From IMG/VR virus record IMGVR_UViG_3300044981_000315, positions 1,588-65,587 of that record: 64,000 nt of DNA; one strand, given 5' to 3'. This DNA is from a virus (Duplodnaviria; Caudoviricetes). Below are positions 14,427 to 61,115 of the stretch, piece by piece (position 1 is the stretch's first letter; every line of letters starts with the position of its first letter). Both the position numbers and the translations under genes were made by a program. The notes beneath the pieces are model-generated. The model was not told the origin of the DNA. It saw only the letters and a program-made list of their open reading frames with translations, and made no database searches.

Positions 14427-14466
14427 GTTATATAGCAGGTGTATATGCATAATCAGGGATATAATT

Positions 14467-31918: not shown

Positions 31919-32020
31919 TTTGCCCCAAAAGTCCCTATTATCTATATATCCATCGGCACTCGTATCGTTAGTTATATGCAAAATTATTGGGCTGCCAATG
32001 CCATAATTCTGTATATAGGC

Positions 32021-35000
32021 ATGAGCGGATTTCTTCAAAGTGGTGGCGGAGGGGGAGGCACAAATACCCCAACAGGTCCAGCAGGCGGCGATTTAGGAGG
32101 AACTTATCCTGATCCGACGGTGACCTCTATTCAAGGTAATCCTGTAGAAGCTGAAACTTTGGGCGCCTTGCAAGATGGCTATGTTTTAACTTGGGTTAAT
32201 GCGGATGGTAAATTAGAGTTTTTGCCATCGCCTTCTGGTACTCTGTATTCTCACTTTTTTGCCTTGATGCCATCGGACAACTCTGCTACTATTGCAGTAG
32301 GTGCTCCGGTATTATTTCCTCAGAACGGTCCTTCCACAGGTGCTGCCGCCTCTTTAGGTGGGGGTATATTTAATCTACCTTCTATTGGTACTTACGAAAT
32401 TAGTTGGCAAGTCAGCGTGTCGGAAGCAGGACAACTTTCTTTAGCCATTGGAGGCGTTGGTTTACCAGATACCGTAGTCGGACGCGCCGCCTTGACCAGT
32501 CAAATTGTGGGTTTTGCCGTTATTACCACTGTTGTGGCCAACTCACATTTATCTGTTATCAATCCAGCTGGAAACTCGACCGCATTAACCATAACTCCAG
32601 ATGCGGGTGGTAATAATGCAGTCAGCGCTACTTTAACTATTAAATACAATGTCAGCGGTTCTGGCGGTGTACCGGGTGTGCCGCCCACTGGTCCAGCTTT
32701 CGGAGACTTATCTGGTAATTATCCGGATCCCATTGTGGTGGGTTTGCAGGGTCATGCCATTTCTTCTTCTTCTCCATTAACGGGCAATCTTTTAGAGTGG
32801 ACTGGATCCGATTGGACTCCAAGCTCTCTTAATTTAGCTGGTGGATCTAATTATGTGACAGGAGCTTTACCATCAGCTAATCAAGCTGCTCAGACTATGG
32901 GAGGTGCAGTTGGTGGTACTACTGCAGCTTCTACCATTAACTTAACTGGTAATGCTTCTATTACTGGATCTTTACCAACTACCAATCAGGTAGCACAAAG
33001 TTTAACTCTCACTGGTGATGTAACAGGTTCAGGTACCACGGCTGGAACCACCACTACTGTGGCAAAAATACAGGGCGTCACTATCTCCGGAGCCCCTCTT
33101 ATAGGATATGTATTAGAGGCAACTTCTCCTACCGCCGCCTCTTGGCAACTTCCTTCTCCTCAAACGATGGGTGGTGATGTTACTGGTACCACTGCCATAT
33201 CAACTGTAGCTAAAATACAGGGCAATGCTGTTACTCCACAATCTTTGGGTGCTAGTCAAGATGGTTATACTTTAACTTGGAATGGTGCTGACTGGTTAGC
33301 CTTACCCATCAATAGTATTATTAGTAGTGCCGTTGCGGCGCCAGGTACGCCAGCCTATAATCCAACTTGGTATGCGGCAACTAACATCTACTGGGATCCA
33401 GCAGGAACAGTTGGTGGCAGTGATGCTAATAGCGGAACAGTTATTGGTTCTCCACTTCTAACATTTGCTGAAATTGTACGACGTTATGGTTCTACCACTC
33501 CTGAGATGAACTACGGACAAAATGTTACCATCCATCAACTAACTTCACAACCTGCGGGCATTGATCCGGTTTTCTTTTCTCCGTTACTCTCTGGTGGCGG
33601 TTATATCGCACTTATTGGAACTCTGATTGCTAATGGTGCATCTTCCACCATTTCAGGTCTTATTGCAAAAAACAGAACCACTAACACATTTCTTCAGATT
33701 TCAACTTTTGGTTCTCTCGTCCAAAGAAACCTTATCTACAATGTAACGCGAAATAGTTACGCTTTTGCTTATGGAGTCGGTGGTGGCGTGGCGACAATGA
33801 CACAGCCTATTCCCGCTAGTGTGATCACAACCATTACCTTTCCCACACTCGCCGAAGATGATACTTGGGCAAACGGCGACACGGTTCAGGCATATGAACT
33901 GCCATTCTGCAATCTAAAACAATTTGCTAGCACTGGTGGCGATGCTTTAGGAACTAGCCGTTGTGCTTCGTGGCTTCAGTTTATAAAAGTTAGTGATAGT
34001 TCTAGTGCTGATAATAGTTTCTTTCCAGCTGTCAGTCGTGGCAACGCGCTTCCTGTTTTCTCAGCTTGTCATTTCACAGCACGAACACAAATTGCTGGCA
34101 ATACAGGAGATGAAGAAGGGTCCATGTTTATCGGTTGCTCTATGGATGGATTTACCATTCTAACTACGGGCCCGTGGCTTGTGTATGGTGGTTGCTTCGG
34201 AACACCTTTCACCCAATATGGTGGAATTTCGTTTGCAGGTGGCGATTGTCTTTTTGCTGGTGGCACTTTTATCTATGGTGGTGTTTTCTACAATTTGGGG
34301 CCAGGTCTTGAACTCTCGAGCAATAATACGGTAACCAACGGGGGCAGCATTGAAAATGCTGGTATTATATGGGGTGGCGGCGCCATAACGATAGAGCCAG
34401 GAAGTACATTTTGGAATGTCACTGGAAGTACGTTTGCATCGACACTTTTTACCGGTACTCTTATGCTTGGCTCTAATACAACTGGTAGCTCATTTAATAC
34501 AACTAACGGACTATTTGCTAGTGGTATTCCAATAACACCTGCTAATCTGGATACCAATGGTGGTCTACAAGATCCGTCTACCGGAGCAAGATTCGCCAAC
34601 ACCAGTGGTGGTACCGGATCAGCAGGATATACGGCACATTCGGTACTAGTTGGTGGTGGAACTGGTGCTATTGTCGGAGTGGGCCCAGGTACATCTGGAC
34701 AAGTTTTAATAGGTCAAGGAGTTAGTACCAATCCCTCCTTTGTTACTTTATCTGGGGGAGCCACCGTTTCTAATACTGGTGTAGTGACCTTATCTGCTAT
34801 TAACTTAGCTGGTGGAAGTAGTTCTGTAACTGGAATTTTGCCAGCAGCCAATCAAGCCGCACAAACAATGGGAGGTGATGTAACTGGTACTACCGCTGCG
34901 GCTACCGTAGTAGCTATACAGGGTAATGCAATTCAATCGGGAACTTTGGGAGCTCCTCAAGATGGTTATGTTCTGACTTGGACTGGTACTCAATGGGCGC

Positions 35001-40024: not shown

Positions 40025-40900
40025 TCAAGCACTTACACGCTCTTTTAGCCATTCATCGTTTGGATATTTGGTCAATAAATAGTTGATGGCAATAGACTTT
40101 TTTCGTTCCATCCATACCGGTGGATCGTGGTATAGGAACTTAACTATTTGATAGATATTTTTATACCCACCATATTCAACTACTTTAACGAAATTAGTAT
40201 TTTTCTGCGATCCCAATTTCGTTTTTGATATATGGCACCTATCAATCAAAATTTCTTGGAATGTTTGTGCAAATTCTGTTGGTGCGATAAAATTGAAGTT
40301 CAGAAGTTTTACATCTGGTTTTTTATAGTGTGTTTTTAGGCAAAAGCTGCCATCACTATCTACCAAGCCTAACATATAATAACATAAGAGCGTCTTTGAT
40401 AGTTTTGGAAAGTCCATATAATGAGTTTTGTCTTTATGAAACCCATATTTTCTTAAATCGGATACTATTTTTTTATTAGTCAATCGCAATTCATATGACA
40501 TAGAGAAGGTACCGTCATTTTTGAGCCCATTATTTTTTAATGTAATAGGATGATTAGACTGTAAAAACTCTCGCAATTTATATACATATTCTTTATCGGA
40601 CTGCTCCAACGATAGTCCAATATCGTTATCGTCAGTTATCCAGCCATCACCAGTTAGCATACCCAACCAGTAAGCCTTTTCAGGCGTATTTATGTTCTCG
40701 AAAATATCTTCGTTTATAGCATATTTTTGTTGGCAGTGTGAAAAATCACGTAGTAAAATATCTTGCTCTCGTAGGAGGGCGTTGATAGTTTGTTTAGAGC
40801 AGTTAAATTGTTTTCCAATTTGTTTACACGATGTTCTACTCTGATATAATTCGATGATTTTGCTAGTTTCTTGTTCGCTAAATATTATTTTCTTTGGCAT
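40025..40900 (-). CDS. Free-standing LAGLIDADG homing endonuclease
   Basis: YWLGMLTGDG and YMLGLVDSDG; FLYHDPPVWMERK; same architecture as 14467. Confidence 0.9.
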   Translation of the reverse strand: MPKKIIFSEQETSKIIELYQSRTSCKQIGKQFNCSKQTINALLREQDILLRDFSHCQQKYAINEDIFENINTPEKAYWLGMLTGDGWITDDNDIGLSLEQSDKEYVYKLREFLQSNHPITLKNNGLKNDGTFSMSYELRLTNKKIVSDLRKYGFHKDKTHYMDFPKLSKTLLCYYMLGLVDSDGSFCLKTHYKKPDVKLLNFNFIAPTEFAQTFQEILIDRCHISKTKLGSQKNTNFVKVVEYGGYKNIYQIVKFLYHDPPVWMERKKSIAINYLLTKYPNDEWLKERVSA

Positions 40901-40955: not shown

Positions 40956-41519
40956 TTACAAGCCCGATAATTTCTCAAATATCTCAATTTCCCTCATCAA
41001 ACCCGCATGCTTATGCGACTGCCCCAAGGGAAAATTGACGATGATTTTGTCATGCATTTCTTGCCCGCCCCATAAGGTAATTTCCTCCACCTTAAATTGA
41101 ATGGCATGCATTTTCTTATCTTGCTTGGGCTCTTCTTCTGCATATGACAAGGTGATATGCGGTTTATATTCCTTAAATTGTTTGGAATATTCAATATTGG
41201 CTTGATCCAACTTTTGGGCCAATGTACCGCGCATGCGATGCAATTCCGTCGATTCCACTTTGGCAATGACGGCGCATTTGCCCTCTCGATGCCCCGGAAA
41301 GTGAGTAACCAAGGCGGTGCTAACGGTAAAGGGTTGCGTTTTGCCGGCTACTTCTTGGATAACGGGCAGGCATTTGGATATTTCCGAGACGGACCATTGA
41401 TCTCCAAAATACATTAAAGTAATGTGTAATTCGGCGGGATCCGATTTTTCGCCCGGCACCTGTATCTTGGAAAGGAGATGAGCCGCTTCGGGAGGAACTT
41501 GAATACCCATGAATGCCAT
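40956..41519 (-). CDS. 2H phosphoesterase (LigT/ThpR/Acb1-like)
   Basis: Two HxT motifs: LHITLMY and PHITLSY. Confidence 0.85.
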   Translation of the reverse strand: MAFMGIQVPPEAAHLLSKIQVPGEKSDPAELHITLMYFGDQWSVSEISKCLPVIQEVAGKTQPFTVSTALVTHFPGHREGKCAVIAKVESTELHRMRGTLAQKLDQANIEYSKQFKEYKPHITLSYAEEEPKQDKKMHAIQFKVEEITLWGGQEMHDKIIVNFPLGQSHKHAGLMREIEIFEKLSGL

Positions 41520-42301: not shown

Positions 42302-44281
42302 ATGGTTGAATATGCTTCTAAAGTTAGAGTAGGATTATCTCGAGTCTCCAGTCTCGGAGATGGTTATACCATTAATTTGCGGTGGTTTCAGGCTTATCCT
42401 AATGTACAGAGCAATAAAATTGCTTATCATATTTATTATGGCTCCAGAAGTCAAGATGTCATTCATGGTGCTGAAGAGCCTGATATTTTTGAGGAAGGTG
42501 TCAAACTAGTAGTTATTGACGGATCTTTAGAAGCTAATGTTATTAGTTTAACACCTGGACAATTGTATTGGTTCTGTGTGCGTCCTGTGGAGTATGATCC
42601 CACCATTTTTGATTTGGCTAATTTACCAGTAGCTTACGACAATATACGCTTTTATCCTAGTAGCATATTGAGTCAAAATATGACAGCTACTGATCTGATC
42701 GTGCCTTTAATGGATGTGACCGGATTTCCTAGCACTGGCATTGTCAAAGTTGGATATGAGTTAATTCTGTATACTGCCGTGGATGTGCCGGATAATGAAC
42801 TATTGGTCCCTGGAGGAATCGATCCTATCAGTGGTCATTTGCTTTTGCAACCTGATGGATATTACTATACTGCCAGCACAAATAATATAGGTCAAGGAAC
42901 CATAAACTCTTTAACTTTAGTGGGCGGGGATGTTAATGAAACTTGGAGCATCCGCTGTATTTTTATCCAGCGTGATAGTAGCGGTAATCCGATTGCTGGC
43001 ACTGCCAAATTTGAAGCTATCGGTTCTATTACCGGACCTCCAGTAGATGGCTATGGTAACTTTTTTGTTTGGTCAGTTAATGGGCCCGTGGTTTCTAATG
43101 GTTATTTGAGTTTTTCCATCACCGAAACGGTGCCTTTCGTACCCGGAGACAATTTTGTGGCGCAAGTGGTAGGAGCTGTACCGGGCGTCAATGGGGGTCG
43201 TGGTTTTGCCAATACCCCTATCACGCCTCACTACATTAATGGTTTTGATGGATATTACCGTCATAACCCACAAGTTCAAGTTTTCACTTTGACCGAATCT
43301 CGAATATTCGATAACATTTATGCGTGTCTGTCTCGTTTTGAGTATCCAAATTTCGCTTTTACTATTCTGGATGGATATAAACAAGTACCAATAGATTACT
43401 TGAGCACCGATGACTCCGCAGCTGATGCCGCTAACATTACTTTTCCTCCCTATGATTATTGTGGTTATCACAGAACGGATCCAGTTTTGTTATTGAACGG
43501 TACTTGTGTAGGCAGTTATATTGGGGGCCAAATGGGAGGTATTGATGCTAATGGTAATTATAGTTTGTATCGTGGCATGTCATTGCAACAACAAAATACC
43601 CAAAGAGAAGATGTATTATTGTCGGTAACTGGACAGCCGGCTGTGCTGATTAAAAGACAACAAACGGGCATCGTGTGTAGTTGTTATTTATCCACTAGCG
43701 AATATCCAGATGACCGTTGTCCTTTCTGCTATGGCACTAAGTTTGTCTTTGGATATGAGCAATATTTCAATCCTCTGGAATCGGATGGTCGTATTCTGGT
43801 AAGATTGGGGCCCACCGCTGAAAACCTCAAGATGCAAGAAGCAGGTTTAGAGTCCACTTTTCCCTTGGATATGTGGACCTTAACCGTGCCCACCGTTAAG
43901 ACGCGTGATGTCATTGTGCTATTCGATCAAGACGACAATGAATCCTTCCGATATGAAGTGGGGGATGTGATTAGAAATAACACCATTCTAGGTTTGGATG
44001 GCGGTCAACACTTGAAGACTTTCAGAATCCGAAAGACAGATCCAGCTTACCAAATCAGAATTTTCCGAAATACTTCGGAGTTCCCAGATACTCTCAATAC
44101 CACTTTGGGCTTTACTCCCGGAATCCCACCCCATACCCACACGGTGGTCGTCAACGAAAAAGTGTTGGCAGTTAGCCAAATTAATCAGACAACAGGAATT
44201 ACTCAAGGTCATAACCATCCTATAATTAATGGTGTGGTAATGGAAGTTCTGGGGCACACACATCAAATTTTGCTCCCCTGA
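42302..44281 (+). CDS. Multidomain neck/head-closure protein (FN3-like + sheath-like beta domain + Zn-binding stopper + His-rich tail)
   Basis: LTPGQLYWFCVRPV (FN3-like); CSC..CPFCYGTKFVFGY; HTH..GHNH..GHTH; five DGY motifs. Confidence 0.55.
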   Translation: MVEYASKVRVGLSRVSSLGDGYTINLRWFQAYPNVQSNKIAYHIYYGSRSQDVIHGAEEPDIFEEGVKLVVIDGSLEANVISLTPGQLYWFCVRPVEYDPTIFDLANLPVAYDNIRFYPSSILSQNMTATDLIVPLMDVTGFPSTGIVKVGYELILYTAVDVPDNELLVPGGIDPISGHLLLQPDGYYYTASTNNIGQGTINSLTLVGGDVNETWSIRCIFIQRDSSGNPIAGTAKFEAIGSITGPPVDGYGNFFVWSVNGPVVSNGYLSFSITETVPFVPGDNFVAQVVGAVPGVNGGRGFANTPITPHYINGFDGYYRHNPQVQVFTLTESRIFDNIYACLSRFEYPNFAFTILDGYKQVPIDYLSTDDSAADAANITFPPYDYCGYHRTDPVLLLNGTCVGSYIGGQMGGIDANGNYSLYRGMSLQQQNTQREDVLLSVTGQPAVLIKRQQTGIVCSCYLSTSEYPDDRCPFCYGTKFVFGYEQYFNPLESDGRILVRLGPTAENLKMQEAGLESTFPLDMWTLTVPTVKTRDVIVLFDQDDNESFRYEVGDVIRNNTILGLDGGQHLKTFRIRKTDPAYQIRIFRNTSEFPDTLNTTLGFTPGIPPHTHTVVVNEKVLAVSQINQTTGITQGHNHPIINGVVMEVLGHTHQILLP

Positions 44282-46088: not shown

Positions 46089-49000
46089 ATGAGCAACTAC
46101 CCCACTGCATTAGATACGGATGTTACGCTAACTCCAGTTAATGACAATTTGTCTCAAATTGGTGATATGGCGATCAACCAACTTCGTGACGCAGTATTTG
46201 CTATAGAGCAATATGTTGGTACCAATCCTAATGGTGTTAGCATTGAGTCCAGGTTAGGGCTCTTGGTCAATCAAGAGGGTATGATTAATTCTTCAGTTAT
46301 TACCTCTTTGGGTTTAGTGACGCTGCCCATTACGCAAGACCAAATTGCCGACAACGCTGGTATTCCAGAATCCAAATTACAGTTAAACTTTCCAACTCTT
46401 ACTTTGTATAACTACATCAGAGATTTATCTAAAGATGTTAATTTGGCTTTGGGTTGGATCGCCGTAACTGGCTCCAAATTGGAACCGCATTTAATTGGTG
46501 CTATCTATCGTCACCAAATGTCAGATATTGATGTGAGTGAAAACCCTGCACAGTATTTGGATAACGTTTTCCGTACCCAACGCAATAATACTAATTCTTA
46601 TACTTTAGTTAATGATATCAACAACGAACTATTGGCTCATCAATGGGCAGATGGTTCCCCCTTTGGTACCCTACAAAATATCACGACTAATGATGGTTCC
46701 ACGTATCCATCTTACTACTCTCATGTAGCTAGTTCCATTTTTCTGGATACCAGCAGCTTTGTTACTATCTCGCAGACTGCCGATGACTTGCAGTTGTTTG
46801 CTGATTTTATTGATCACTCCAGCATTTTCTTGTTGGGTACTAGAATACAAAACTTGTATGCTAACGGCATTTCTAGAGTTTCCACTTCTTCTAGTTTATT
46901 GATTGATGGTTATGGTCAATCCATAGTTCCGTCTACTCCAGTCATTACTTATTTGCTAGGACAGTTCGGTAATAGTAGTTCCCCGATGGATAATATCAAT
47001 TTTGGTGATGATATCGTGCAATTTATGCCGACCAACACCTCTAATAATGTTTTTGCTTCACAGTTTGCTGCCGTTAATGTGGGAGATATTATCTATGTTA
47101 ATTATGGCACGGTAGAAGTTGGTTTTATTATTCAAGAGAAAAGATACAACCAAAATGGTGGTAATGCCGTTTATACTATCCGTATCAATGGCAAGAATTT
47201 AGCTTTTAATTCTACTACTGCTACCGCTTATATTGATCGCTCCCTCATCAACACCAATAAATATGGCGTGTTGGCGATGGCTCCTGCATTTATTCCAGGT
47301 GTTCCTCTTGGCGAACCTAGTCTCATCATTGGTAATCCTCGTGGTGCTCAGGCCCTAGGTAATGGTTTTGATGCTAGCCAGTTAAATAGCACTCATTACC
47401 TGCTATATTTAGGTTTATATCCTGATGGTATTCCTGCTGATGGTTATTCTATTTTACCAGCCATTGATATAACAGGTAATGCTGGTGCCACTCCAGGATC
47501 TTATACTTTGGATAGTGTAGTACAGACAGCCAATTTAGCTTTTAGACAACCCGGTTTTAACTATCGATTTATTGCGTTTGAGTATCAGGGTAATTTTGGT
47601 ATCATGCTTGCCGACCCATACAACAACGCTTCTTTCTCCATTTTCAATGGCGTAGTTAATAGTGTTGGAGGTTATGATCCTACTGCTACTGCTATTGCTT
47701 TTCCCAACAACGTGGTAGATGTTTTTACCGATGGATATGCTGCCGCCGTAGATCCTTTGGGATTTGGATTGGGTGGTGCTAATATCGCTAGCCCTCCATA
47801 TCAATCTTCTTACACCGTAGGATCAGCCTCTCTACCCACTCAATTATTTGTGCCACTCAAGAGAAATAACTATTACGTTAACGGTGTAGAAAAAGAGGAA
47901 ATGGCTCCAGACGGATATCAAGTTACCGACACTTATGGTGATGGATACTGGGTAGCTACGGTAGACGGTTATTATATTAATCCAGGCGTTAGTGTAGAAA
48001 AAACTTATAGTATTACATATGATTTATCTGCTACAGGACTAGAAGTAGGTAAAACCATCGTAGTGCAATCTTTGGGAGGAGATGGAACTTTTCCATTAGA
48101 TTTTGGTCGATTCATTATTAGTGCCGTTAATTTTGGTTGCTGTCCCAATGCTAGCACCACTATCACGGTGTACGATTCTGTTCAGGGTATTGGTTTTTCA
48201 CCAGATAGTACGTCCGGAACCAATACTATTACAAGTGGAAAAGTAGCTATTTATTTTAGTTCCGATTCTGTCTCATTTAATGCGGAGTCAGCTACCGATT
48301 TTAGTGCAGTTAATTTCCCATTCAAGAGACATTTTGAGGTATACATCGATCAAAATGCTCATACTTTCACTCATGAGAGAGGAAGGATGAATGTCTCTGG
48401 ATCTAATCAGCTCATTAATCCTCCATCAGTGGGTGGTATAACTTTAGCTAGCACCCCAAGTCTTTCCTATTTTGACCTAGTAGCCATCTCTCCTAAATTG
48501 CGTGGCTATCCATTTGGTAATGGTGTAACTAAAATTACACTTAATATACTTAGTTACAACAGTGTTACTGGTGTATATTCTGGATATTTATGCTCCAGTT
48601 TAGGCAATAATTTGGGACCACTCACTGTTGGTAAGCAGGGAGAGATAACTAGGTTCTATGATGAGACTAATATTGACTACATCGATATTAATCTAAACTC
48701 TACTGTTGCTATTAGTTCTTTTGCTAACCAGCAAATTGATATCCAATTGTTCCCAACTTTGGCACTAGACGAACAGATTATGATTTTGGGAAGTTGCCAG
48801 TTAAACGATACGAACCAACAACTAACTTATCTGACCGATAGACGACAGTTTGGTAATGTTAGCGAGGCACAACTAACTACTTCTGCTCTAGATTATATTG
48901 CAGCTCCTACTCGACTTCTCCAAGAGAATGGCATTGTCAGGGGCTTTGATGTAGTTTCTTCGCCTACAGGTGCCGCACCTTTTTCCAGCGAAATAGTAAT

Positions 49001-51251
49001 GAGTGGTGGTGTAGCGGTTGTTAATGGCAATATCGTTCAAGTCAACAATAGAACCATCAATGTTCCGGTAGTGTATGAAGTAATTGGCGCATCACACACC
49101 ATCAACAATACTATTACCTGGTTTATTTGCATCAATCAAGATGGAGAATATGAGTTTATCGCTTGTACGGATTTCAATCCAAATAGTGCGCCCATTTATT
49201 TGGACAACGGTTTGGATGAAAATAGAATTTTCTATGTAGCCAACCCTAACAACAGCCTGAGCAACTATTATCCAGTTCGCGCTACTTATTTAGCCGATTT
49301 AGTTGAGAATCAAAAAGATGTAGTGTTGGTAGGTATGATTACCTCTACCGTTACTTTACAAGACAGCGTCTATGCTATTACTATCGCCACCCCTACTGTT
49401 GATATTGATGCTCGCCGATTTGTAGCCAATGGTTATGGCGGTTTAACCGCTCCATTTGTCTTAGGTCCACAAGGCAGTTTCCGAAACTTTACTTCTTTAA
49501 CCAACTGGTTAACTCAACTAGCTAATAGTAACTCTACTGTTGATGGATATAATGACGTTGGACAAACTATCAAAGTGGTGGGCAACACCACAGTTTCCTC
49601 TACCTATACTTTGGATTATTTAAGTCAGGTAACTTTTGAAGGCATGGGTGGAAGCATCACTATCACTAACGATATTGGTTTTGCGTTAGGTAGCAATGTT
49701 GCCTTCAAAAACGTGACGGTTGATTATCTATATGATCCAGTAGTTAATAGCGATCCTGATTATTCAGATGGCTATGTATCTAACCCTCTTAAGGCAGCAT
49801 TTTACGCTTCGGCTGGTGATGGTTATGGTGAACTGGCTATACCTGGGCGACTTCAGAATGTCACCTTCGAGGATTGTTTATTTACTTCTCCGAACCAAAG
49901 TAGATTTGCCTTTCTCGGTTTCAACCTTGTTTCCAGCCTTTCCACTATGCAAAATATCAGAGTAGTGAACAACAAGTTCCAAACCAGTTTTGATGGTGAT
50001 GATAGACGAGCCGTTATCACTTTCGTTGGACCGACTGTTCAATCGCTTCCAACCGTGGATGCTCCTAATGGTCCGCTTCTCAACAATTGTTTAATTGATA
50101 ATAACTTGTGTAATAAGAATCAGCTTATCTTGATTAGTTCGCCATATGTTAGTGGAACAGGTCCAAGTCCTGTTGTTACGAGTTTTGCTGTCCTCGGTGC
50201 TTCTACCGTTACTAATACGGGACCCACTGTTGTTACTGGTGATGTTGGCGTTTCTCCTGGAACTTCTATTACCGGTTTCCCTCCTGGTACTGCCACAGGT
50301 GGTACTCATTCTAATGATTCTGATGCTATCGCTGCTGCGGTAACTCTTAATGCCGCATATTTGGCTGCTCAAGCACCGCAAGGTGGCACGCTTATCGTAG
50401 CTGGTACCTATGCTAATGGTGCCGTCATAACTCCAGGCGTTTATTTCGCTACTAGCTCCCTTAACTTAACTGGTGGTACTGTTACCTTGAATGGTGCAGG
50501 TAATTATACTTTCCAAATTGCTTCTACGCTAGTAACAGCCTCCAATACTATTATTGCTTTAACTAATGGTGCTAATGCCGCCAATGTAACATGGGCAGTG
50601 GGTAGCTCAGCCACCCTTGGTACCGGTACTGTCTTTAATGGTAGTATTTTGGCTCTAGTTTCTATTACTGATAATGGTGGTTCAACTGTTAATGGTCAAT
50701 TATTTGCATCAACTGCCGCTGTTACTCTTAATGATACAACTGTTACCATCCCAGGTGCGCCTGCAGCAATAACGCCAGTGTCAGAACTAATAGCTGCTAG
50801 CAACCTTAAGATTGTAGGCAACACTTGTGGCGCCATCAACGTCCTGGTCAAACGAAATATTACGTCTCAACTTCTCGATGATGTCTATAATTTTATGCAG
50901 GCATCAGGTACCATTATCTCTGGCAATACTTGTCCATTTATTTACTCAGGATATGCTAATGGAAATATCTGTGATGGCGCTGGTAATAGACCGTTTATGA
51001 ATGGCATCTTGCCAGCTAGCGCAACTCCACCCATTTATACAGGATACATGTTAATTTCTAACAATGTATGTTCTTACATTCAGACGGGACGCCAGGTTTC
51101 CTATGAAGATCCCTTTGAAGGAACCTCTCCGTTGATTATAGTCAACAATCAACTACAAGCCTATCCCAATATCAATTATTTGACACCTTACTATGATGGT
51201 CAAGCTGTGCAACTAATTGCTATTCTGGTGGACGAGGTATCGGTGATATAA
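46089..51251 (+). CDS. Large neck/collar structural protein with a beta-helix C-terminus and an inserted DUF3494 domain
   Basis: MSNYPTALD N-terminus; right-handed beta-helix-like repeats (IDNNLC, IVGNTC, ISGNTC, ISNNVC); nine DGY motifs. Confidence 0.65.
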   Translation: MSNYPTALDTDVTLTPVNDNLSQIGDMAINQLRDAVFAIEQYVGTNPNGVSIESRLGLLVNQEGMINSSVITSLGLVTLPITQDQIADNAGIPESKLQLNFPTLTLYNYIRDLSKDVNLALGWIAVTGSKLEPHLIGAIYRHQMSDIDVSENPAQYLDNVFRTQRNNTNSYTLVNDINNELLAHQWADGSPFGTLQNITTNDGSTYPSYYSHVASSIFLDTSSFVTISQTADDLQLFADFIDHSSIFLLGTRIQNLYANGISRVSTSSSLLIDGYGQSIVPSTPVITYLLGQFGNSSSPMDNINFGDDIVQFMPTNTSNNVFASQFAAVNVGDIIYVNYGTVEVGFIIQEKRYNQNGGNAVYTIRINGKNLAFNSTTATAYIDRSLINTNKYGVLAMAPAFIPGVPLGEPSLIIGNPRGAQALGNGFDASQLNSTHYLLYLGLYPDGIPADGYSILPAIDITGNAGATPGSYTLDSVVQTANLAFRQPGFNYRFIAFEYQGNFGIMLADPYNNASFSIFNGVVNSVGGYDPTATAIAFPNNVVDVFTDGYAAAVDPLGFGLGGANIASPPYQSSYTVGSASLPTQLFVPLKRNNYYVNGVEKEEMAPDGYQVTDTYGDGYWVATVDGYYINPGVSVEKTYSITYDLSATGLEVGKTIVVQSLGGDGTFPLDFGRFIISAVNFGCCPNASTTITVYDSVQGIGFSPDSTSGTNTITSGKVAIYFSSDSVSFNAESATDFSAVNFPFKRHFEVYIDQNAHTFTHERGRMNVSGSNQLINPPSVGGITLASTPSLSYFDLVAISPKLRGYPFGNGVTKITLNILSYNSVTGVYSGYLCSSLGNNLGPLTVGKQGEITRFYDETNIDYIDINLNSTVAISSFANQQIDIQLFPTLALDEQIMILGSCQLNDTNQQLTYLTDRRQFGNVSEAQLTTSALDYIAAPTRLLQENGIVRGFDVVSSPTGAAPFSSEIVMSGGVAVVNGNIVQVNNRTINVPVVYEVIGASHTINNTITWFICINQDGEYEFIACTDFNPNSAPIYLDNGLDENRIFYVANPNNSLSNYYPVRATYLADLVENQKDVVLVGMITSTVTLQDSVYAITIATPTVDIDARRFVANGYGGLTAPFVLGPQGSFRNFTSLTNWLTQLANSNSTVDGYNDVGQTIKVVGNTTVSSTYTLDYLSQVTFEGMGGSITITNDIGFALGSNVAFKNVTVDYLYDPVVNSDPDYSDGYVSNPLKAAFYASAGDGYGELAIPGRLQNVTFEDCLFTSPNQSRFAFLGFNLVSSLSTMQNIRVVNNKFQTSFDGDDRRAVITFVGPTVQSLPTVDAPNGPLLNNCLIDNNLCNKNQLILISSPYVSGTGPSPVVTSFAVLGASTVTNTGPTVVTGDVGVSPGTSITGFPPGTATGGTHSNDSDAIAAAVTLNAAYLAAQAPQGGTLIVAGTYANGAVITPGVYFATSSLNLTGGTVTLNGAGNYTFQIASTLVTASNTIIALTNGANAANVTWAVGSSATLGTGTVFNGSILALVSITDNGGSTVNGQLFASTAAVTLNDTTVTIPGAPAAITPVSELIAASNLKIVGNTCGAINVLVKRNITSQLLDDVYNFMQASGTIISGNTCPFIYSGYANGNICDGAGNRPFMNGILPASATPPIYTGYMLISNNVCSYIQTGRQVSYEDPFEGTSPLIIVNNQLQAYPNINYLTPYYDGQAVQLIAILVDEVSVI
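50181..50753 (+). other. DUF3494 (ice-binding-like) domain inserted in the 1720-aa protein
   Basis: SFAVLGASTVTNTGPTVVTGDVGVSPGTSITGFPPG..AY..TPGVY..FQI..A.NVTWAVGSSATLG..F.GSILA..SIT..VNG.L.A..AVTL. Confidence 0.9.
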
Positions 51252-52540
51252 TGGCTATTTCAACAAACTCAAATATATTGATACAGGGTAATACCGTTGA
51301 TTACGGCACCAACATGGACGCTATCAATGGAAACGGTTATACCAACTGTATTAACTTGAATTTGGATCTTAATCAAGTGGCAGATCCTGAAGCTCAATAT
51401 GCTCAACCTGGTTATGCTAAAATTACTGATAACTTTTTAAGTGGCATACCAGACGCGCCAACCACAAGCGTCCACATCGCTTTAGTAGGTGGCTCTACCA
51501 TAATAACTAATAACACTTTTATAGGTCCCGGCATCCAAAACCAAGGTATCAATATTAAAGCCTATATTACCGTTGATAGCCTTAACGATCAGGTCATTAC
51601 GGACAATATTTTTGATAGTCCAACTGTAGATAGCTTGTTGGCTGGAGTTAATGAGACACTGGTTCTTGGAGTGGGTACTAATAGCTTTACCACCACCTCT
51701 ACTTATCACTCTAACAAAAACCAAACAGGCTATTTGCCAATTAGTAAAACACCTAATCTCATTGATTTTGATTATAAATCAGGGCCAGCAGCAACTACTC
51801 CTATACAAAGTTTTTATAGTTTTGATTCCGATCCCGGTAACACCACGGATGGATATGTTAGATGCAAATATGGCAATTTTACTATCGGTACAAAACCATC
51901 CCTATCAAATCCATTTGACAACATGGTACCACCCTATACTCCACCTCCTCCCGTTAGCACTGGAACGCCCAACTATATAGGTTGTGAAGGAACAGCAATT
52001 CTTTATGGACCTAGTGATACTAGCGTAATTAGTTATACTTTTTCTATTGATGTTAATGAGTATTTACCCAATAATGTCCAAATACTTAATTTTGTTGTAG
52101 GTATAACGGCTGATGGTTACACTCTAGAAACTGGTGTAGCTAATTATCAATTATGGTCTGCTAGTAGCGTATCAGCTGTTCCAGTTGCCCCTCCAACAGC
52201 TTATAACTCTTTCACTATCTCTACTATATTAGCAAACAGTTTAGCGGATGTGAGAAATACTATTGGTGTTCCACCCGCTTCACAAACTACGCCAGTAGTA
52301 GCTTCTGAGCAAACGGCTGGTTTGCAAGTAAAAAATCCAGCTGGCGCTAACCAAGTTACTGCCGCACAACTCAATAGTGCCACTCAATATATATTTTTGG
52401 ACGTATCTGGAGAGCCACAATATTTTGTAACTCCTGGCACTAGAATATCCGTTGTGTATCAAGCAACTACTGCAGTAAGTGGTAATACATCTCCAGTTTA
52501 TATTTATGAGTCGCCACTTATTGTTAAATATCGTTGGTAA
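51251..52540 (+). CDS. Beta-helix-containing structural protein
   Basis: IQGNT, ITDNF, ITNNT and ITDNI repeats; translationally coupled to the previous gene. Confidence 0.55.
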   Translation: MAISTNSNILIQGNTVDYGTNMDAINGNGYTNCINLNLDLNQVADPEAQYAQPGYAKITDNFLSGIPDAPTTSVHIALVGGSTIITNNTFIGPGIQNQGINIKAYITVDSLNDQVITDNIFDSPTVDSLLAGVNETLVLGVGTNSFTTTSTYHSNKNQTGYLPISKTPNLIDFDYKSGPAATTPIQSFYSFDSDPGNTTDGYVRCKYGNFTIGTKPSLSNPFDNMVPPYTPPPPVSTGTPNYIGCEGTAILYGPSDTSVISYTFSIDVNEYLPNNVQILNFVVGITADGYTLETGVANYQLWSASSVSAVPVAPPTAYNSFTISTILANSLADVRNTIGVPPASQTTPVVASEQTAGLQVKNPAGANQVTAAQLNSATQYIFLDVSGEPQYFVTPGTRISVVYQATTAVSGNTSPVYIYESPLIVKYRW

Positions 52541-53547: not shown

Positions 53548-56500
53548 ATGGCGGATATCCAAGGAGCTACAAATGCATTACCAGGCGTCTTTACGCTAGT
53601 TCAGACGCAAGCCGCTGGTGCCGCTATTCCAGGCGGTTCTCGCGTAACTGCTATGATTGGTCAAGGCCAAACCAACGGTACCATCGTGGCTCAGGCTCAA
53701 GGTGGCGGTCTAGACGGTTTAGATCCAACTTATACTTCTACTAGTGGTTCTGACGGTAGGCACTTTCTTATTACTGGTGCCCCTCTTATTCCAAATAGAA
53801 CGACTTTGTTTTTGAACGGTATTCCTTTGGTGGGTATGGAGTCTGTCATTACCGCTACCACTACTTTTAGCAATCAGTTTCAGTATTTGCTAGATCCAGT
53901 TACCGGTGAAATTTTACTACAATCTGCTTATATAGTTAATCAAGGTGGCGCTTTTTATGTGCCACTTTCCACTAACGTAGGTTTGGGAGTTATCAACGGC
54001 TTGACCTTAGTGGATGTTAACGCTCCACCAGAGACTTGGACCGTTCGTTGTATAGCTGTGCAAAGAAACTCTATGAATCAACCTATCGGCGGTACTGCTC
54101 AGTTTATCGCCATCGGTTCTGTTTCTGGTGCTCAAGTAGATGCTAATGGCAACCCAATCATTTGGATGGTAGCTAATGGTTCCGCTCCATCAATTCTATC
54201 TTTTGGTATTTTGGCAGGTTCTGGTATTACTAATACCGGAGCTTCTACAGTTACTGGCGATGTTGGTACCTATCCAACTACCACCGAAACAGGTTTCGGA
54301 ACCCTCACCATTAATGGTACCAACCATATGGGAGACTCGGTAACTCAAGCCGCCAAAACTGCCTTAACTGCTGCCTATAATGCGGCTCAAGCTCTATCTG
54401 GTGCTGTTACCATTCCAACCGACCTTAATGGACAGACTTTAACTCCTGGTGTTTATAGTTCTCTTTCTGGAACTTTTATGAACACTGGAACACTAACCCT
54501 TAATGGTGCTGGTAGCTATACTTTCCAGATGGCCACCACCCTAGTGACTGCTGCCTCCAGTACTGTCGTTTTGACAGGTGGTGCAACTGCTGCTAATATT
54601 ACCTGGGCAGTAGGCAGTTCTGCTACTCTCGGTACCTCTTCTCATCTTGAAGGTAGTATTCTCGCCCTCACTTCTATCACTGCTACTACTGGCGCTACTG
54701 TTAATGGTAGTTTGTTAGCTCAAAACGGCGCTGTGACTTTGGATACCAATACTATTACAGCGACTGCGACTCCATCTACTTCACCATCAGGTACTGTCTC
54801 TAATGGTATTTTGAAATTCAGTATCTCTGAAACGCAAGTGATGAATGTGGTGGTTTCGCCATTCGTACCAGGCGATGCTTTCACCATTGTTGTTAATAGT
54901 GGTGTGTTGCTGAAGAATGATGCCTTAACTGCTACTTATATTCCGGTAGCCAACATTAATGCTCCTACTTTGACTCAGGGTCTTAACCAAGTAGTTACTC
55001 AATTTGGAACTCCTAGTTTAGATAATAGCTTGTCTTTGGGTGCTCAATTGTTCTATGCTAATGGAGCTTCCAGCCTTATTTGTGTACAGGCAGCCCCTCC
55101 ACTTCCACGTAGAACTTTCTTCAACCTATCTCCTTCGGTCAATGCTGCCTCCACTAATGATGATGATTTTATCTTCCCATTGCCAGTGGGCGTGGTACCA
55201 GCTTTTGATGATGATATCTATTTCTTTGTCACCAACAACAGCACCCAGGTAGAAACACAACTTTTACCTAACAAACAAACTTACTATACCCTAGGCACTG
55301 CCGGTAATCCAACTCAAAATCAATTCATTATGAGCAATGCTCCAGCTCCTACTGGTTTCTCCTACTTTTATACCGTCATTCAAAGTTTCGAGACGGTAGT
55401 TAGTGGTTTTGACGGATATATAGCTCCAATCAACTCAGCTCTACCTAACCAGGGCGCCTTTAGTTCTTCGGTTACTTTTGACAATACTTACATCGGTTTA
55501 GAACTTAAAGTCATTGATGCTGTTAACTTCGCCAACATCAATACGTATACGGTAACTAACGTAGTTAATGGTGTCTTGTATGTAACTGGACCCGTACCTC
55601 TTGCTAATTTCACAAACCAGAATCCAACTACTTTCGAGTTGATTGACCCAGTGGATGGCTTACCTGTAACAGGTGGCAGTGGTACTGACGGCGTATTGAC
55701 TATTGCTGGTGCTGGGCTAGGTAACTTAACTAGCACGGCTGTCGATTTCTCCCCTTTTAATAGCAAGCTCAATATCAACGGATACCAGCTTCAAATCAAT
55801 GGATCTGCCAACAATGATGGTCTTTACTATATTGTTGGATTTGACTCCATAACCAATACGTTAACCCTACAAACTACAGTGGTATCCGAACATAATCTTC
55901 GTTATGAGGTTATCAATCCAGCTTTGGAAAGCAACTATATCGTTGTCAACCATAACGTAGTACCAAATGGTTATGGTCTCAGCGTCAGTTTGGTAGATAA
56001 CCGTGATGCTACTTTCTACGATGCTGGATGGATCAATGCCCTAGCTGCTCTAGAAACAGTAGAATGCGATATTTTGGTTCCACTACCAAACCAGACCATT
56101 AGCGTTATTTTCCAGAACTGTGTTAACCACTGTATTGCCATGAGCAACATTGTTAACAAGAAGGAACGCGTATTGTTCATCGGAGCTATCAACGGTTTGA
56201 CTCCAGCCAACTTGACTGGTGCTCAATTAGCCGCAGTAGAAGACCTAGGACCACTAGAAGGTATTCCAGGTTCCAACCCAAGCTTGATTCTACAGGCCAA
56301 CCCACAAGACTTAGCCAACTATTCTGTCGCTGCCGCTTATGGTGATACTTACCGTGTAGTCTACTTCTACCCTGACCAAATCATTGTAGCTGTATCAAGT
56401 GGTAATATCCTTATCGATGGTTTCTACATCGCTGCCGCTGCCGCTGGTTATGAGTCTGCGGATATAATCATACAAAACCCAATTACCAACAAGGTATTTT

Positions 56501-56958
56501 CAGGCTTCACTATCCTAGGTAATAAAACCTTCTCTACTCTAACTTTGGAACAACTAGCTGCTGCCGGAGTCTGTACTCTACAACCAGTAGCCGGAGGCGG
56601 TACTGTCATTTGGGGCATCACTACTTCTCAAAGCGGTTTTCCAGAAGAACAAGAAGTTTCTATCGTCTTTATCCGAGACAGAGTGGCCAAGGTATTAAGA
56701 GCTGCCTTCAAAGGTTTCATTGGCACTCCGCAAGATGTTAATACGGCTGCCGCCCTTAATACGGAAGCTGTGGAAACCCTTAACTCCTTGGTTGGTCAAG
56801 GATTGCTAACTGCTTATACTAACTTGAATGTTTATCAGGACACTGTAGACCCTCGTCAATGGAACATCTCAGTATTGGTTAGCCCAGCTTTCCCAATCAA
56901 CTGGATCTTTATAACCGTTAATGTTGGCAATCTAAATCTTGCTAGCTCTACTGGTTAA
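53548..56958 (+). CDS. Contractile tail sheath protein with inserted domains including DUF3494
   Basis: PGVFT N-terminus; HCIAMS..KKER, LAAAGVCTL, IWGITT, EVSIVFIRD and PAFPINWIFITV sheath C-terminal motifs. Confidence 0.9.
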   Translation: MADIQGATNALPGVFTLVQTQAAGAAIPGGSRVTAMIGQGQTNGTIVAQAQGGGLDGLDPTYTSTSGSDGRHFLITGAPLIPNRTTLFLNGIPLVGMESVITATTTFSNQFQYLLDPVTGEILLQSAYIVNQGGAFYVPLSTNVGLGVINGLTLVDVNAPPETWTVRCIAVQRNSMNQPIGGTAQFIAIGSVSGAQVDANGNPIIWMVANGSAPSILSFGILAGSGITNTGASTVTGDVGTYPTTTETGFGTLTINGTNHMGDSVTQAAKTALTAAYNAAQALSGAVTIPTDLNGQTLTPGVYSSLSGTFMNTGTLTLNGAGSYTFQMATTLVTAASSTVVLTGGATAANITWAVGSSATLGTSSHLEGSILALTSITATTGATVNGSLLAQNGAVTLDTNTITATATPSTSPSGTVSNGILKFSISETQVMNVVVSPFVPGDAFTIVVNSGVLLKNDALTATYIPVANINAPTLTQGLNQVVTQFGTPSLDNSLSLGAQLFYANGASSLICVQAAPPLPRRTFFNLSPSVNAASTNDDDFIFPLPVGVVPAFDDDIYFFVTNNSTQVETQLLPNKQTYYTLGTAGNPTQNQFIMSNAPAPTGFSYFYTVIQSFETVVSGFDGYIAPINSALPNQGAFSSSVTFDNTYIGLELKVIDAVNFANINTYTVTNVVNGVLYVTGPVPLANFTNQNPTTFELIDPVDGLPVTGGSGTDGVLTIAGAGLGNLTSTAVDFSPFNSKLNINGYQLQINGSANNDGLYYIVGFDSITNTLTLQTTVVSEHNLRYEVINPALESNYIVVNHNVVPNGYGLSVSLVDNRDATFYDAGWINALAALETVECDILVPLPNQTISVIFQNCVNHCIAMSNIVNKKERVLFIGAINGLTPANLTGAQLAAVEDLGPLEGIPGSNPSLILQANPQDLANYSVAAAYGDTYRVVYFYPDQIIVAVSSGNILIDGFYIAAAAAGYESADIIIQNPITNKVFSGFTILGNKTFSTLTLEQLAAAGVCTLQPVAGGGTVIWGITTSQSGFPEEQEVSIVFIRDRVAKVLRAAFKGFIGTPQDVNTAAALNTEAVETLNSLVGQGLLTAYTNLNVYQDTVDPRQWNISVLVSPAFPINWIFITVNVGNLNLASSTG
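54199..54759 (+). other. DUF3494 (ice-binding-like) domain inserted in the tail sheath
   Basis: SFGILAGSGITNTGASTVTGDVG..AKTALTAAYN..DLNGQTLTPGVY..FQM..AANITWAVGSSATLG..GSILALTSIT..VNGSLLAQNGAVTLDTNTIT. Confidence 0.92.
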
Positions 56959-57016: not shown

Positions 57017-57685
57017 ATGGCCACCGCGCCCAACACAGGTTCTACACTAACTTATCCAAACGGTGCGAATAAAACCTCCACCGCTATCTCGACTAATATC
57101 ATCATTACGGTGAGAACTCCAGCTGGACCCGTTCCGGTAGGTGCCGTTCAATCCATGGCCATCTCCGAAAAGAGATCCATCAAGATGATCGATGAAGTGG
57201 GTACTGATGGGCATATCGACTCCGTCCCCAACCAATCTACCAATATTACGGGTACTTGTCAGCGTGTTAGATTCGACCGACTACGTATTGCAGAAGCTTT
57301 CGATCGTGGTTTTATCCATGTCGCTTCTCAAATCTACCCTTTTGATATTATCATCTTTGATAAGCAAAAGTTAGCTGTCGGTTTGCAAATTTCTACCACT
57401 ATTAAGAACGTTTGGATTGCTGGTATCGACTACACTTACCAAATCAGCGATTGGGTTATTACCGATAGCATGACTTGGGAAGCGGAAACAATTTATTCTA
57501 TTTTGAATAATGGATCTAATACACCAGTGGCTCAAGGCGGCGAAATTGGTTTGGCCTTTAGCAATATCCCAATTGAACGTGCTACTGATACGGGTCTTAA
57601 TGGTCGTCGTGGATCGTTAGATTCGCCCGGATTGATCGACCTCGGATCGGCTGCTTATAGTCCTCCTGGCACCGCAATCTTCTAA
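57017..57685 (+). CDS. Tail tube protein
   Basis: Directly follows the sheath; VGAVQS..EVG..PFDI..IKNVWI..Y..ITDSMTWEAE tube-like pattern. Confidence 0.8.
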   Translation: MATAPNTGSTLTYPNGANKTSTAISTNIIITVRTPAGPVPVGAVQSMAISEKRSIKMIDEVGTDGHIDSVPNQSTNITGTCQRVRFDRLRIAEAFDRGFIHVASQIYPFDIIIFDKQKLAVGLQISTTIKNVWIAGIDYTYQISDWVITDSMTWEAETIYSILNNGSNTPVAQGGEIGLAFSNIPIERATDTGLNGRRGSLDSPGLIDLGSAAYSPPGTAIF

Positions 57686-58835: not shown

Positions 58836-61115
58836 ATGGTTAACATTCCACCTTCAGGCACAGATCCTACAGTACCCAGTGCTGCCTCCATTAATGATAC
58901 AGCTCAGGCTACCCAGAACCTAACTACCAACACTATTGCGCAGACTGCTGCCTATCATGACCTAAACACTGTTAGTGATTTGGTGCAAACCGGTATGGAT
59001 GGTATTGAGCAAGCGGCTAAAGATGCGGGCGTTAGTTTAGGCAGTCTAACTGATTTAACACAGGAACAATCAGAAAAGTTCGCTGTTTTCACCTCAGCTG
59101 CCGTGAATGCTAGAATTGCTTTTGCTGGTTTTTCTAATGTAGATTACAGCGGGCTTTCTACTTTTACTGACCAGATTAAAGTGCTGAGAGAAGCTTTGGA
59201 AAATACCCCTCTGACCCAAACAGTAGCTGCTGTGAAAATGCTTGCACAAGGGTTAGTAGGTGCTGGTGCTAGCCAATCTTCAGTCAATACGGCTTTAGCT
59301 AAAGGTAAAGATGCAGTATTGGCCTTAGCCACTAATATGGCCACTCATGCCGATAACATGGCTCGTGCCCAAACTGCTTATGTGCAGATGGCGGCTCGTA
59401 CTGGTGAATTAGGCGATGTGATGACAAAAGCTGGCGCTGGTCTGAAAGATATGAATGCTTTATTAGAAAAGCAACAAATGATGTTGCAATACACGAGAGA
59501 GGCTACTGGTTTAACTGCTAAACAAACGGAAGAATGGTATAGTCAATTAGGTTCCATTCCTGGAGCCCTTAAAGAAACCGTTTCATTAGGGGATAAGGCT
59601 GGCGCCTCCACCAGTATGTTAACGGCTACTATTCAAGCAGCTACCGGCTCTGGTCGTAGTATGGCTGATGTGATGAAAGATCTCAGTACGGCTTTTAGAG
59701 ATTATGGTTTAGTGGGAGAAAAGGCGTTACTCTTTTCTGTGCGTATGAGTGACGTTTCTACTAGACTAAAAGCCCCCATTGAAGATGTTAGCAGCGCTTT
59801 ACGCGGGTCAGCTGATGCTTTTAAAATGTTTGCTACCGGACAGGAGAATGCTGCCTCTTCAGCAGAAAGTTTAGCTAAAACACTCAATACATATGGCAAG
59901 GCTTTAGAGTCTACTGGATTAAGCGCTACTGCAGCAGTAGAAGTAGCTGGCCAATTGAATACTCAAGTAGCTAAATTAAACACTGGGCAGCTAGCTTTCA
60001 TTTCCCAACAGACAGGTGGTGCCGGGGGATTGCAGGGCGCAGCACAAGAAACCCTCAAATTACAGAAGGATCCTGGCGCTGTTGTAGAAGATGCTATGAA
60101 GACTTTACAGCAACAGTTTGGTAAAATAGTGACAGTACAAGAAGCCGCTACTAGTCAAGCTGCTGCCTCTCAAAACATTAAACAAACAACTATGTTACAG
60201 ACCTTATTAGGTCCATTAGCTAAGGATCAAGCTTCCGCTAACAGATTATTGGAAGCTATGAAAAATAAGGCAGAAGGTAATCCTAAAGCTATTGCTGATG
60301 CTTTGAGTGAACATCCTATCCAAGATGCCACTCAAAAAGGTGCAGAAATGCAAGCCAAAACTTATGGCGTCACTACCAAAATTATGAACTTAGTAGAGCA
60401 AATACGTGATATGGGAGATCGCGGCTCTTCTAATTTAGCAGGTAAAATGACGGCTGGCGCTACTAGTCAGACACTCACTACTGCTGAGGGCGCATTTAAA
60501 GATAGTTTAAAGCGACAAATGGCCATTTCAAGTGCGGCTGGTGGAGAACAAGTTAAAAAGGCCAATGAAGGAACTTCAGGTGGTTTAGTTAAAGATACTA
60601 GTAATAGAGACGCAGCAGCCAATATACAACAAGCCTTATCCTCTCTCAAAGATATCCCTACCTTTTTACGAGCCTCTTTCGATACGTTGACTGGAGCTTT
60701 TCGTTCGGGCGATAAAGAAGGTGTCAGTGCTGAAGAAAATTTGTTAAAAGAGATGATAGAATCTCGTAAACTAACGGTTAAGCAATTAGAGGGCTCTCCA
60801 GGTCAAGCTCAAGCCATGTCAGAACTCAAAGCTGCTCAAACCTTATTGAATGCTGCGGAATCAGTTAGTTCTCCTTCTGGTAAAAGAGTGGGAACTGCCG
60901 CTCAACATGCAGTAGCCTATAGTGCTCCAGGCGCGGCTCATACTCCAGGCACGGGCTCTGCCTCAGCTCACGTTCCTTATAGCGCTCCGGGCTCTGCTAA
61001 CGCACTTCACATCATTGGTAAGATAACTATCGATTGTCCTCACTGTGGTAAGGCACACGATGCAAGTAGTCAGTTTAAAGCCTATACTGGACCTGCCGGA
61101 CAATCACAACAATAA
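58836..61115 (+). CDS. Tape measure protein
   Basis: 759-aa A/Q/T-rich helical protein following the chaperone pair. Confidence 0.8.
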   Translation: MVNIPPSGTDPTVPSAASINDTAQATQNLTTNTIAQTAAYHDLNTVSDLVQTGMDGIEQAAKDAGVSLGSLTDLTQEQSEKFAVFTSAAVNARIAFAGFSNVDYSGLSTFTDQIKVLREALENTPLTQTVAAVKMLAQGLVGAGASQSSVNTALAKGKDAVLALATNMATHADNMARAQTAYVQMAARTGELGDVMTKAGAGLKDMNALLEKQQMMLQYTREATGLTAKQTEEWYSQLGSIPGALKETVSLGDKAGASTSMLTATIQAATGSGRSMADVMKDLSTAFRDYGLVGEKALLFSVRMSDVSTRLKAPIEDVSSALRGSADAFKMFATGQENAASSAESLAKTLNTYGKALESTGLSATAAVEVAGQLNTQVAKLNTGQLAFISQQTGGAGGLQGAAQETLKLQKDPGAVVEDAMKTLQQQFGKIVTVQEAATSQAAASQNIKQTTMLQTLLGPLAKDQASANRLLEAMKNKAEGNPKAIADALSEHPIQDATQKGAEMQAKTYGVTTKIMNLVEQIRDMGDRGSSNLAGKMTAGATSQTLTTAEGAFKDSLKRQMAISSAAGGEQVKKANEGTSGGLVKDTSNRDAAANIQQALSSLKDIPTFLRASFDTLTGAFRSGDKEGVSAEENLLKEMIESRKLTVKQLEGSPGQAQAMSELKAAQTLLNAAESVSSPSGKRVGTAAQHAVAYSAPGAAHTPGTGSASAHVPYSAPGSANALHIIGKITIDCPHCGKAHDASSQFKAYTGPAGQSQQ

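Follow-up and report, generated by a model that had tools for sequence, protein, structure and literature searches.

Why would the contractile tail of a phage found in soil metagenomes carry a domain of the Pfam ice-binding family? The question is raised by a gene at 53548..56958 in a 64,000-nucleotide stretch of DNA (the window) that comprises bases 1588–65587 of the linear, 65,587-bp virus record IMGVR_UViG_3300044981_000315. A preliminary description, made from the sequence, had called the 1136-aa product of this gene (P0001) a tail sheath with an inserted DUF3494 domain, and had read the tail as a regular array of ice- or surface-binding domains. The sheath, the full-length domain and the insertion site are all upheld here by Pfam, BLASTP, alignment and fold comparisons, while ice binding as the function is not supported as stated; we favour the fallback offered at the time, namely adhesion to surfaces or host polymers. 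The record represents a fragment of a very large phage, as its CheckV completeness is 15%, a 99%-identical, 1136-aa twin of P0001 (P0004) is encoded on a 201,380-bp contig, and the contigs of further P0001 relatives reach ~498 kb. The parts of the gene, together with an internal control elsewhere in the window, are as follows.

53548..56958, plus strand: contractile tail sheath gene (P0001, 1136 aa) bearing the DUF3494 graft; open reading frame (ORF) with fold matches to solved sheaths
53890..54165, plus strand: host (peripheral) domain, first half, aa 115–206; 48% identity to ORF 42302, aa 173–~260
54166..54795, plus strand: inserted segment, aa 207–416, consisting of a short linker, the DUF3494 beta-solenoid and a Pro/Ser/Thr linker; from alignment, Pfam and AlphaFold2 (AF2)
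54796..54942, plus strand: host domain, second half, aa 417–465; matches ORF 42302, aa 264–312, E = 1e-4
56419..56925, plus strand: conserved C-terminal sheath core, aa 958–1126; from phrog_16991, PF17482 and phage LE2-3 matches
42818..43237, plus strand: uninterrupted copy of the host domain, the internal control, aa 173–312 of P0002 in ORF 42302..44281; from BLASTP

A DUF3494 graft in a peripheral sheath domain

The Pfam family PF11999 (Ice_binding) matched aa 221–404 of P0001 (nt 54208–54759) at E = 2.4e-47, with 161.7 bits against a cut-off of 28.7, and the alignment spanned profile positions 1–208 of 208, the full length of the domain. The same family was also recovered by a six-frame search of the window's own record. 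These limits agree with the domain placed earlier at 54199–54759, as do the linkers described for it, GSAPS ahead of the domain and ATATPSTSPSG behind.

Two comparisons locate the graft. Within the window, aa 115–221 of P0001 align with aa 173–273 of P0002 (48% identity, E = 9e-22) and aa 417–465 align with aa 264–312 (E = 1e-4), the two segments being collinear; as P0002 is contiguous across the junction, the sheath has ~210 extra residues there, and both the insertion site and the use of ORF 42302 as its control, as proposed in the preliminary description, are thereby borne out. Stronger evidence for insertion comes from a 12-sequence family alignment, in which 10 relatives have 2–4 residues between the positions of W206 and V417 while P0001 and its twin have 210 extra residues at that point. 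The host domain is conserved up to W206 in insert-less sheaths, V417 and N419–G420 are conserved in relatives, and a tblastn search with P0002 matched the domain in the sheath genes of three related viral loci (L004–L006) as well. The insert lies outside the conserved core, since matches to sheath-family sequences are confined to aa 958–1126, and is a clean, discrete graft in a peripheral, non-core domain of the sheath.

An AF2 model of aa 206–416, built from an alignment with 50 homologues, reached a pLDDT of 92.9 and consists of a beta-solenoid with one long helix (model residues 59–76), ~22 short strands and disordered ends. All 31 Foldseek matches of this model at E<=1e-3 were ice-binding proteins, and the solved ones gave overall template modelling (TM) scores of 0.85–0.91, among them 7bwy_A (TM 0.87/0.91, rmsd 1.7, 45% identity) and 6eio (42% identity), the latter also being found by a sequence search with the domain at E = 7e-38. 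No sheath entry was among the listed Foldseek matches of the DUF3494 model alone. In the canonical DUF3494 fold the last coil adjoins the first (PMC11645318); with these coils adjacent, the two ends of the domain can join a single loop, which explains how a loop tolerates its insertion.

Sequence matches of P0001 itself to sheaths are weak, and comprise PF17482 at aa 1042–1126 (E = 0.0027, 18.2 bits, under the 26.9 cut-off), phrog_16991 'tail sheath' at aa 958–1091 (E = 4.6e-5) and the annotated 'tail sheath protein' of Eggerthella phage LE2-3, which aligns with aa 956–1126 (34% identity, E = 1e-9). Its relatives are more informative about its identity: P0028 scores 27.3 bits against PF17482, and PF04984 and/or PF17482 are labelled on 32 of 120 listed relatives (here and below, Pfam labels on listed protein relatives were precomputed by the source). 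A full-length AF2 model, from an alignment of 67 family sequences, reached a pLDDT of 66 and a pTM of 0.46, and drew 75 PDB matches at E<=1e-3 in Foldseek, of which the top listed were tail or contractile injection system (CIS) sheaths: phi812, phiCD508, KP1, T4 gp18, P1, Mu, pyocin and AFP. In the VIA comparison the model gave Z 20.2 to phi812 (8q1i_B) and Z 20.0 to the Streptomyces CIS sheath 9gtp_3e (rmsd 3.2, 229 aligned). Together its relatives and its modelled fold settle that P0001 is a contractile tail sheath, the label it had been given at the outset.

Solved sheaths align over only ~190–370 of the 1136 residues in the VIA comparison which, with the sheath-family sequence matches falling at aa 958–1126, implies that most of P0001 is non-core. 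In this it resembles the sheaths of T4 (gp18), phi812 and KP1 and the outer sheath of phi-kp24, which likewise have their core at the N- and C-terminal ends and extra domains between; P0001 differs in having ~750 non-core residues and in that one of its non-core domains hosts a DUF3494 domain. None of the listed PDB sheaths matched through this hosting domain. The extra inserted domains of solved sheaths such as T4 gp18 sit on the outside.

Recurrent grafting among virion proteins

Our scans of sequence collections used few peptide patterns, and the counts they gave are lower bounds rather than frequencies. Among the 120 listed relatives of P0001 only four carry PF11999, and the closest insert-less relative, P0005 (932 aa), is 92% identical to P0001. 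In P0022, P0023 and P0025 the DUF3494 domain occupies a second site in the scaffold (site B), ~530 residues downstream. A midpoint-rooted FastTree phylogeny of 121 sheaths, from which the inserts had been cut out, nests P0001 and P0004 within a clade that otherwise lacks the insert, with P0005 as their sister (support 1.0), and places the three site-B carriers in a distant six-member clade (support 0.993) with three insert-less proteins, two of which pair as sisters with carriers (P0023–P0114, support 0.986; P0025–P0084, support 1.0). This pattern indicates at least two gains in the P0001 family, plus further gains or losses. The small number of carriers, the near-identical insert-less sheath and the placement in the tree show the insert to be dispensable and recently gained: among close relatives the domain is present or absent, the carrier protein is retained and the junctions are clean.

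The domain also recurs in a second sheath family, which was found by an IMG/VR scan with the domain alignment (126 stretches encoding a relative, 80 loci kept). These proteins have 754–834 aa; eight members are mutually 54–98% identical, three match phrog_2839 'tail sheath' at E ~1e-38, and the family core is only 21–28% identical to P0001. PF11999 is present in 14 and absent from 34 of the first 48 family entries in the protein database, and the junction is again clean, aa 1–158 and 365–756 of a carrier (L040) aligning with aa 1–169 and 168–555 of the insert-less P0262. DUF3494 has thus been grafted independently at at least three sheath positions in two sheath families.

The module diverges faster than its scaffold in these proteins. 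The scaffolds of P0022 and P0023 are 88% identical and their DUF3494 domains only 67%, whereas between P0001 and P0022 the scaffolds are 65% identical and the domains 74%; such discordance is what one would expect if a binding module were exchangeable or evolved fast.

The window itself holds a second graft, in a large protein encoded upstream of the sheath.

46089..51251, plus strand: P0003, a 1720-aa protein of the virion module in which aa 1350–1553 (nt 50136–50747) are a further DUF3494 graft; from PF11999 and comparison with homologues

PF11999 matched P0003 at aa 1368–1553 (E = 1.1e-39), and this copy is 52% identical to that of the sheath. At the point where P0003 has ~204 extra residues, its L005 homologue runs on without a break (residues 263|264 of the segment compared), and PF11999 was not found in the L006 homologue. 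By eye, the graft sits between beta-helix-like repeats. Relatives of P0003 conserve the first ~1300 residues (49–53% identity) and vary in the C-terminal part, as receptor-binding proteins do.

Other virion proteins carry the domain too. A PHROG scan of 60 of the 80 IMG/VR DUF3494 ORFs (20 loci were dropped as duplicates or truncated) assigned three to tail sheath, one to baseplate wedge, one to tail fibre, one to minor tail, two to head decoration and one to unknown function, and the baseplate-wedge ORF also matches PF04865 (Baseplate_J). No PHROG family covered the DUF3494 region in any protein scanned. Its patchy, repeated occurrence makes DUF3494 look like a recurrently grafted surface module of virions, and the repeated grafts in two sheath families and in fibre-, baseplate- and decoration-like proteins point to a selective benefit.

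These observations bear on whether the insert does anything at all. It might be a neutral passenger, a functionless but tolerated insertion that dates from an illegitimate recombination event with a gene of a host or phage, and its patchy distribution and clean, excision-like absence from close relatives would fit such an origin. We nevertheless hold this to be very unlikely, as the domain is full length, confidently modelled and in frame, as the domain was grafted independently into at least three sheath sites and also into other virion proteins, and as three more soil runs (X2–X4) have contigs with the insert-bearing allele at ~95% nucleotide identity.

Alternatively, the domain might have a structural role, cementing neighbouring sheath subunits or docking another part of the virion, for instance a folded-back 1720-aa protein, and so stabilizing a very long tail instead of binding something outside the virion. 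Huge phages often add domains to their sheaths, and here the same fold occurs in two virion proteins of one phage. Yet a 92%-identical sheath works without the insert, a specific lattice contact would hardly allow for insertion sites that differ between lineages, and the flexible Pro/Ser/Thr linkers and disordered ends suggest a tethered rather than a packed module, all of which leaves a structural role improbable, if somewhat less so than a neutral one.

Two related occurrences deserve mention. One 117,836-bp IMG/VR contig encodes two DUF3494 proteins ~17 kb apart (L041 and L042), one a sheath belonging to the second family, the other 732 aa long with a C-terminus like that of minor tail proteins, an arrangement that mirrors the two grafts of the window. 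In addition, Hyperionvirus sp., a giant virus, has three DUF3494 proteins (best 49% identity, TM 0.88 in BFVD), so the fold also occurs in a giant virus of eukaryotes that was assembled from metagenomic data; these three were the only BFVD matches at E<=1e-3, with no phage protein among them. A tblastn search of the domain against 50,697 GenBank phage records gave no match at E<=1e-3 or at E<=5, and the lack of any match even at E<=5 with a query rich in T/S/A/G suggests that the low-complexity filter masked it, which makes this a weak sign of absence from GenBank phages.

Ice, adhesion and the habitat of the phage

What might such a module bind? The best solved matches of the insert are AnpIBP (7bwx/7bwy) and EfcIBP (6eio), which belong to the same family, share its helix-braced discontinuous beta-solenoid and are 42–46% identical (TM 0.85–0.91). 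Both come from cold-adapted organisms, are secreted as free single-domain proteins and have measured ice activity, whereas here the domain is internal to a sheath and known as a sequence from a soil metagenome. In bacterial ice adhesins and multidomain surface proteins such as SfIBP_1 of Shewanella frigidimarina (6bg8), DUF3494 is likewise borne on a long scaffold with other surface domains; their scaffold is a protein of the cell surface, whereas the scaffold here is a helical phage tail, which would give a far higher local copy number. The combination of DUF3494 with Big-like, DUF11 and He_PIG domains in bacterial relatives of the insert is one that surface proteins show.

The taxonomic spread of these relatives is broad. 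At least 600 stretches in the genomes of species representatives encode cellular homologues of 50–65% identity; the sources include cultured actinomycetes (Sphaerisporangium, Streptosporangium, Kribbella, Streptomonospora, Streptomyces), Verrucomicrobia, Chloroflexota, Acidobacteriota, clostridial lineages, Oscillospiraceae and a metagenome-assembled genome (MAG) titled Akkermansia muciniphila. Ordinary taxa of soil, peat, freshwater and the gut commonly have the nearest bacterial relatives, and these taxa are not known as cold specialists. DUF3494 is described as an ice-binding and a substrate-binding or adhesive family across environments (PMC12337378).

The habitat of the phage itself is recorded in broad terms, the sequencing runs that hold the gene being labelled 'soil metagenome' only; of these, run X1 is probably the source. 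The three runs with the insert-bearing allele hold 25–38% of sampled words and their contigs bridge the scaffold–insert junctions; they share a year and a habitat label and so may belong to one campaign. Six more runs (X5–X10) hold small shares of sampled words only and are uninformative on habitat, as are the parts of the gene that no contig covers in X2–X4. One short contig of run X2 passes from 54050 straight to 54853, leaving out 802 nt and with them the insert, and may derive from a co-occurring insert-less relative; with a shorter side of 35 letters it is too weak to count.

We propose that a complete DUF3494 beta-solenoid (aa 207–416), spliced through short flexible linkers into a loop of a non-core sheath domain, would be present on every sheath subunit, so that the assembled tail would display one copy per subunit, an estimated 100–200 copies per tail (a rough figure from a 759-aa tape-measure-like protein, described below, and from general rules for the length of a tail and the rise of its sheath). 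The array might then serve as an adhesin or decoration that binds at many points with low affinity, and could keep the virion attached to a polymer or a solid, for example the host envelope, biofilm polysaccharide or another soil surface; ice would be a possible but less likely ligand. Outward display, copy number, a binding function and the ligand are what we infer. Accessory domains of virions, such as Ig-like domains, T4 Hoc and those of the 'adherence to mucus' idea, are non-essential, surface-displayed, multi-copy and patchy among close relatives, as this one would be; the module described here differs in being a beta-solenoid rather than an Ig fold and in being carried by a sheath rather than a capsid. 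A putative multivalent adhesion or decoration module seems to us to have about an even chance of being the correct explanation and to rank above true ice binding. Our doubt about the latter stems from the soil labels of the runs, the homologues in ordinary lineages, the adhesive DUF3494 literature and the fibre-, baseplate- and head-decoration-like carriers.

True ice binding is nonetheless the most serious competitor of adhesion, albeit an unlikely one. A sheath array might adhere to ice or inhibit its recrystallization in seasonally frozen soil, and the particle could be protected or kept in liquid veins alongside its hosts. The full-length PF11999 match and the uniformly ice-binding best solved structures are consistent with this, soil can freeze, and display in many copies would strengthen a weak ice binder. 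In a review, the thermal hysteresis of EfcIBP is given as 0.53 C at 50 uM (PMC10992025), and a cryoprotective role has been ascribed to PF11999 genes of viral contigs from the Arctic (PMC11515562). On the other side, solved structures are biased towards cold organisms, the many close homologues include those of taxa not known to be specialized for cold, the runs say no more than 'soil', and rapid divergence of the module would be odd for a ligand as invariant as ice.

Several points tell against adhesion. The full-length model is modest overall, as its scores above indicate, and poor across aa 210–290 and 387–414, because only two sequences in the alignment cover the insert, so that it is a poor guide to whether the insert faces outward. 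The closest proteins of proven function, AnpIBP and EfcIBP, are ice binders of cold organisms, which favours the ice reading, and the titles of some homologue-bearing MAGs suggest permafrost, peat, palsa, bog or Siberian sites. A PHROG assignment is missing in 51 of the 60 DUF3494 ORFs scanned, and some DUF3494-bearing contigs may include host DNA. Finally, the discordance between module and scaffold could come from relaxed constraint and not from the chasing of a ligand.

The boldest extension of the ice-binding reading, in which virions are coated with arrays of working ice-binding domains on tails and other parts and form a multivalent ice binder or antifreeze particle, appears to us somewhat less probable again than ice binding by the sheath. 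Were it true, such a virion might survive freeze–thaw or park at the ice–water interfaces where hosts concentrate, a virion-level cold adaptation not described before.

The domain has been met in viral sequences before in another guise. Three PF11999 genes on Arctic viral contigs were read as auxiliary metabolic genes (AMGs) for host cryoprotection (PMC11515562) and treated as stand-alone genes; here, in contrast, structural proteins of the virion contain the domain in frame, and some PF11999 'AMG' calls may accordingly be virion modules. For the window we considered and rejected a host-cryoprotection AMG, as the domain is internal and in frame in both the sheath and P0003 and has no ORF of its own. 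Phage S-SKS1 is named in the same report as holding homologues, and PF11999 was not found in its 208-kb record. Literature searches combining DUF3494, PF11999 or ice binding with phages or virions found no description of the domain in a sheath or any other virion protein. Accessory binding modules on virions are already known, and a DUF3494 domain built into a tail sheath appears to be undescribed; it points to a virion module that is common in soil viromes but has been overlooked. If ice were bound, this would be the first ice-adhesive virion, whereas binding to polymers would offer a testable non-ice function for DUF3494, with relatives that have or lack the insert as a natural experiment.

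Neighbouring tail genes and other genes of the window

Two genes downstream of the sheath extend the tail module.

57017..57685, plus strand: probable tail tube gene, 222 aa, directly 3' of the sheath; from Atlas features and synteny
58836..61115, plus strand: probable tape-measure-like protein, 759 aa, a weak assignment; from the L006 homologue

The 222-aa ORF had an ESM Atlas feature score of 0.97 to viral clusters, 23–28% of whose members carry PF26461 (Phi812_tail_tube); its own Pfam and PHROG scans gave no match, and a PDB sequence search none that was meaningful. For the 759-aa ORF, the L006 homologue matched PF20155 (TMP_3) at E = 1.7e-7 and 31.6 bits, under the 41-bit cut-off. Gene order around the sheath is kept in L004–L006, and the window probably presents the order sheath, tube and, further on, tape measure, a tail module that fits the sheath call. 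Between the 1720-aa protein and a 282-aa ORF lies a 429-aa ORF (51251–52540) with no counterpart in L004–L006 and no family match, which the tail module may have gained in this lineage alone.

The internal control, P0002 (659 aa, 42302–44281), has homologues at the same place in L004–L006. Its Pfam, PHROG and PDB searches gave no meaningful match, and the Atlas placed it with viral hypothetical clusters only. By eye its C-terminus, with a cluster of Cys residues and several H-x-H motifs, resembles the tips of fibres or spikes.

Elsewhere in the window are four scattered homing-endonuclease-like genes, two of them LAGLIDADG and two GIY-YIG/NUMOD3 (14425–15354, plus strand; 40025–40900, minus; 28495–29175, plus; 31217–32038, minus). 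Enzymes of other kinds include a member of the CCA-adding/poly(A) polymerase family (15922–17157, minus; PF01743, E = 9e-39) and a patatin-like phospholipase (29160–30032, plus; E = 1e-30), and there is also a Laminin_G_3 lectin-like protein (27649–28443, plus; E = 2e-8). A 2H phosphoesterase at 40956–41519 (minus) matches PF13563 (E = 4e-15) and PF23474 'Anti-CBASS protein Acb1' (30.7 bits against a cut-off of 27, E = 3e-7), and is a candidate anti-defence nuclease of cyclic-nucleotide signals.

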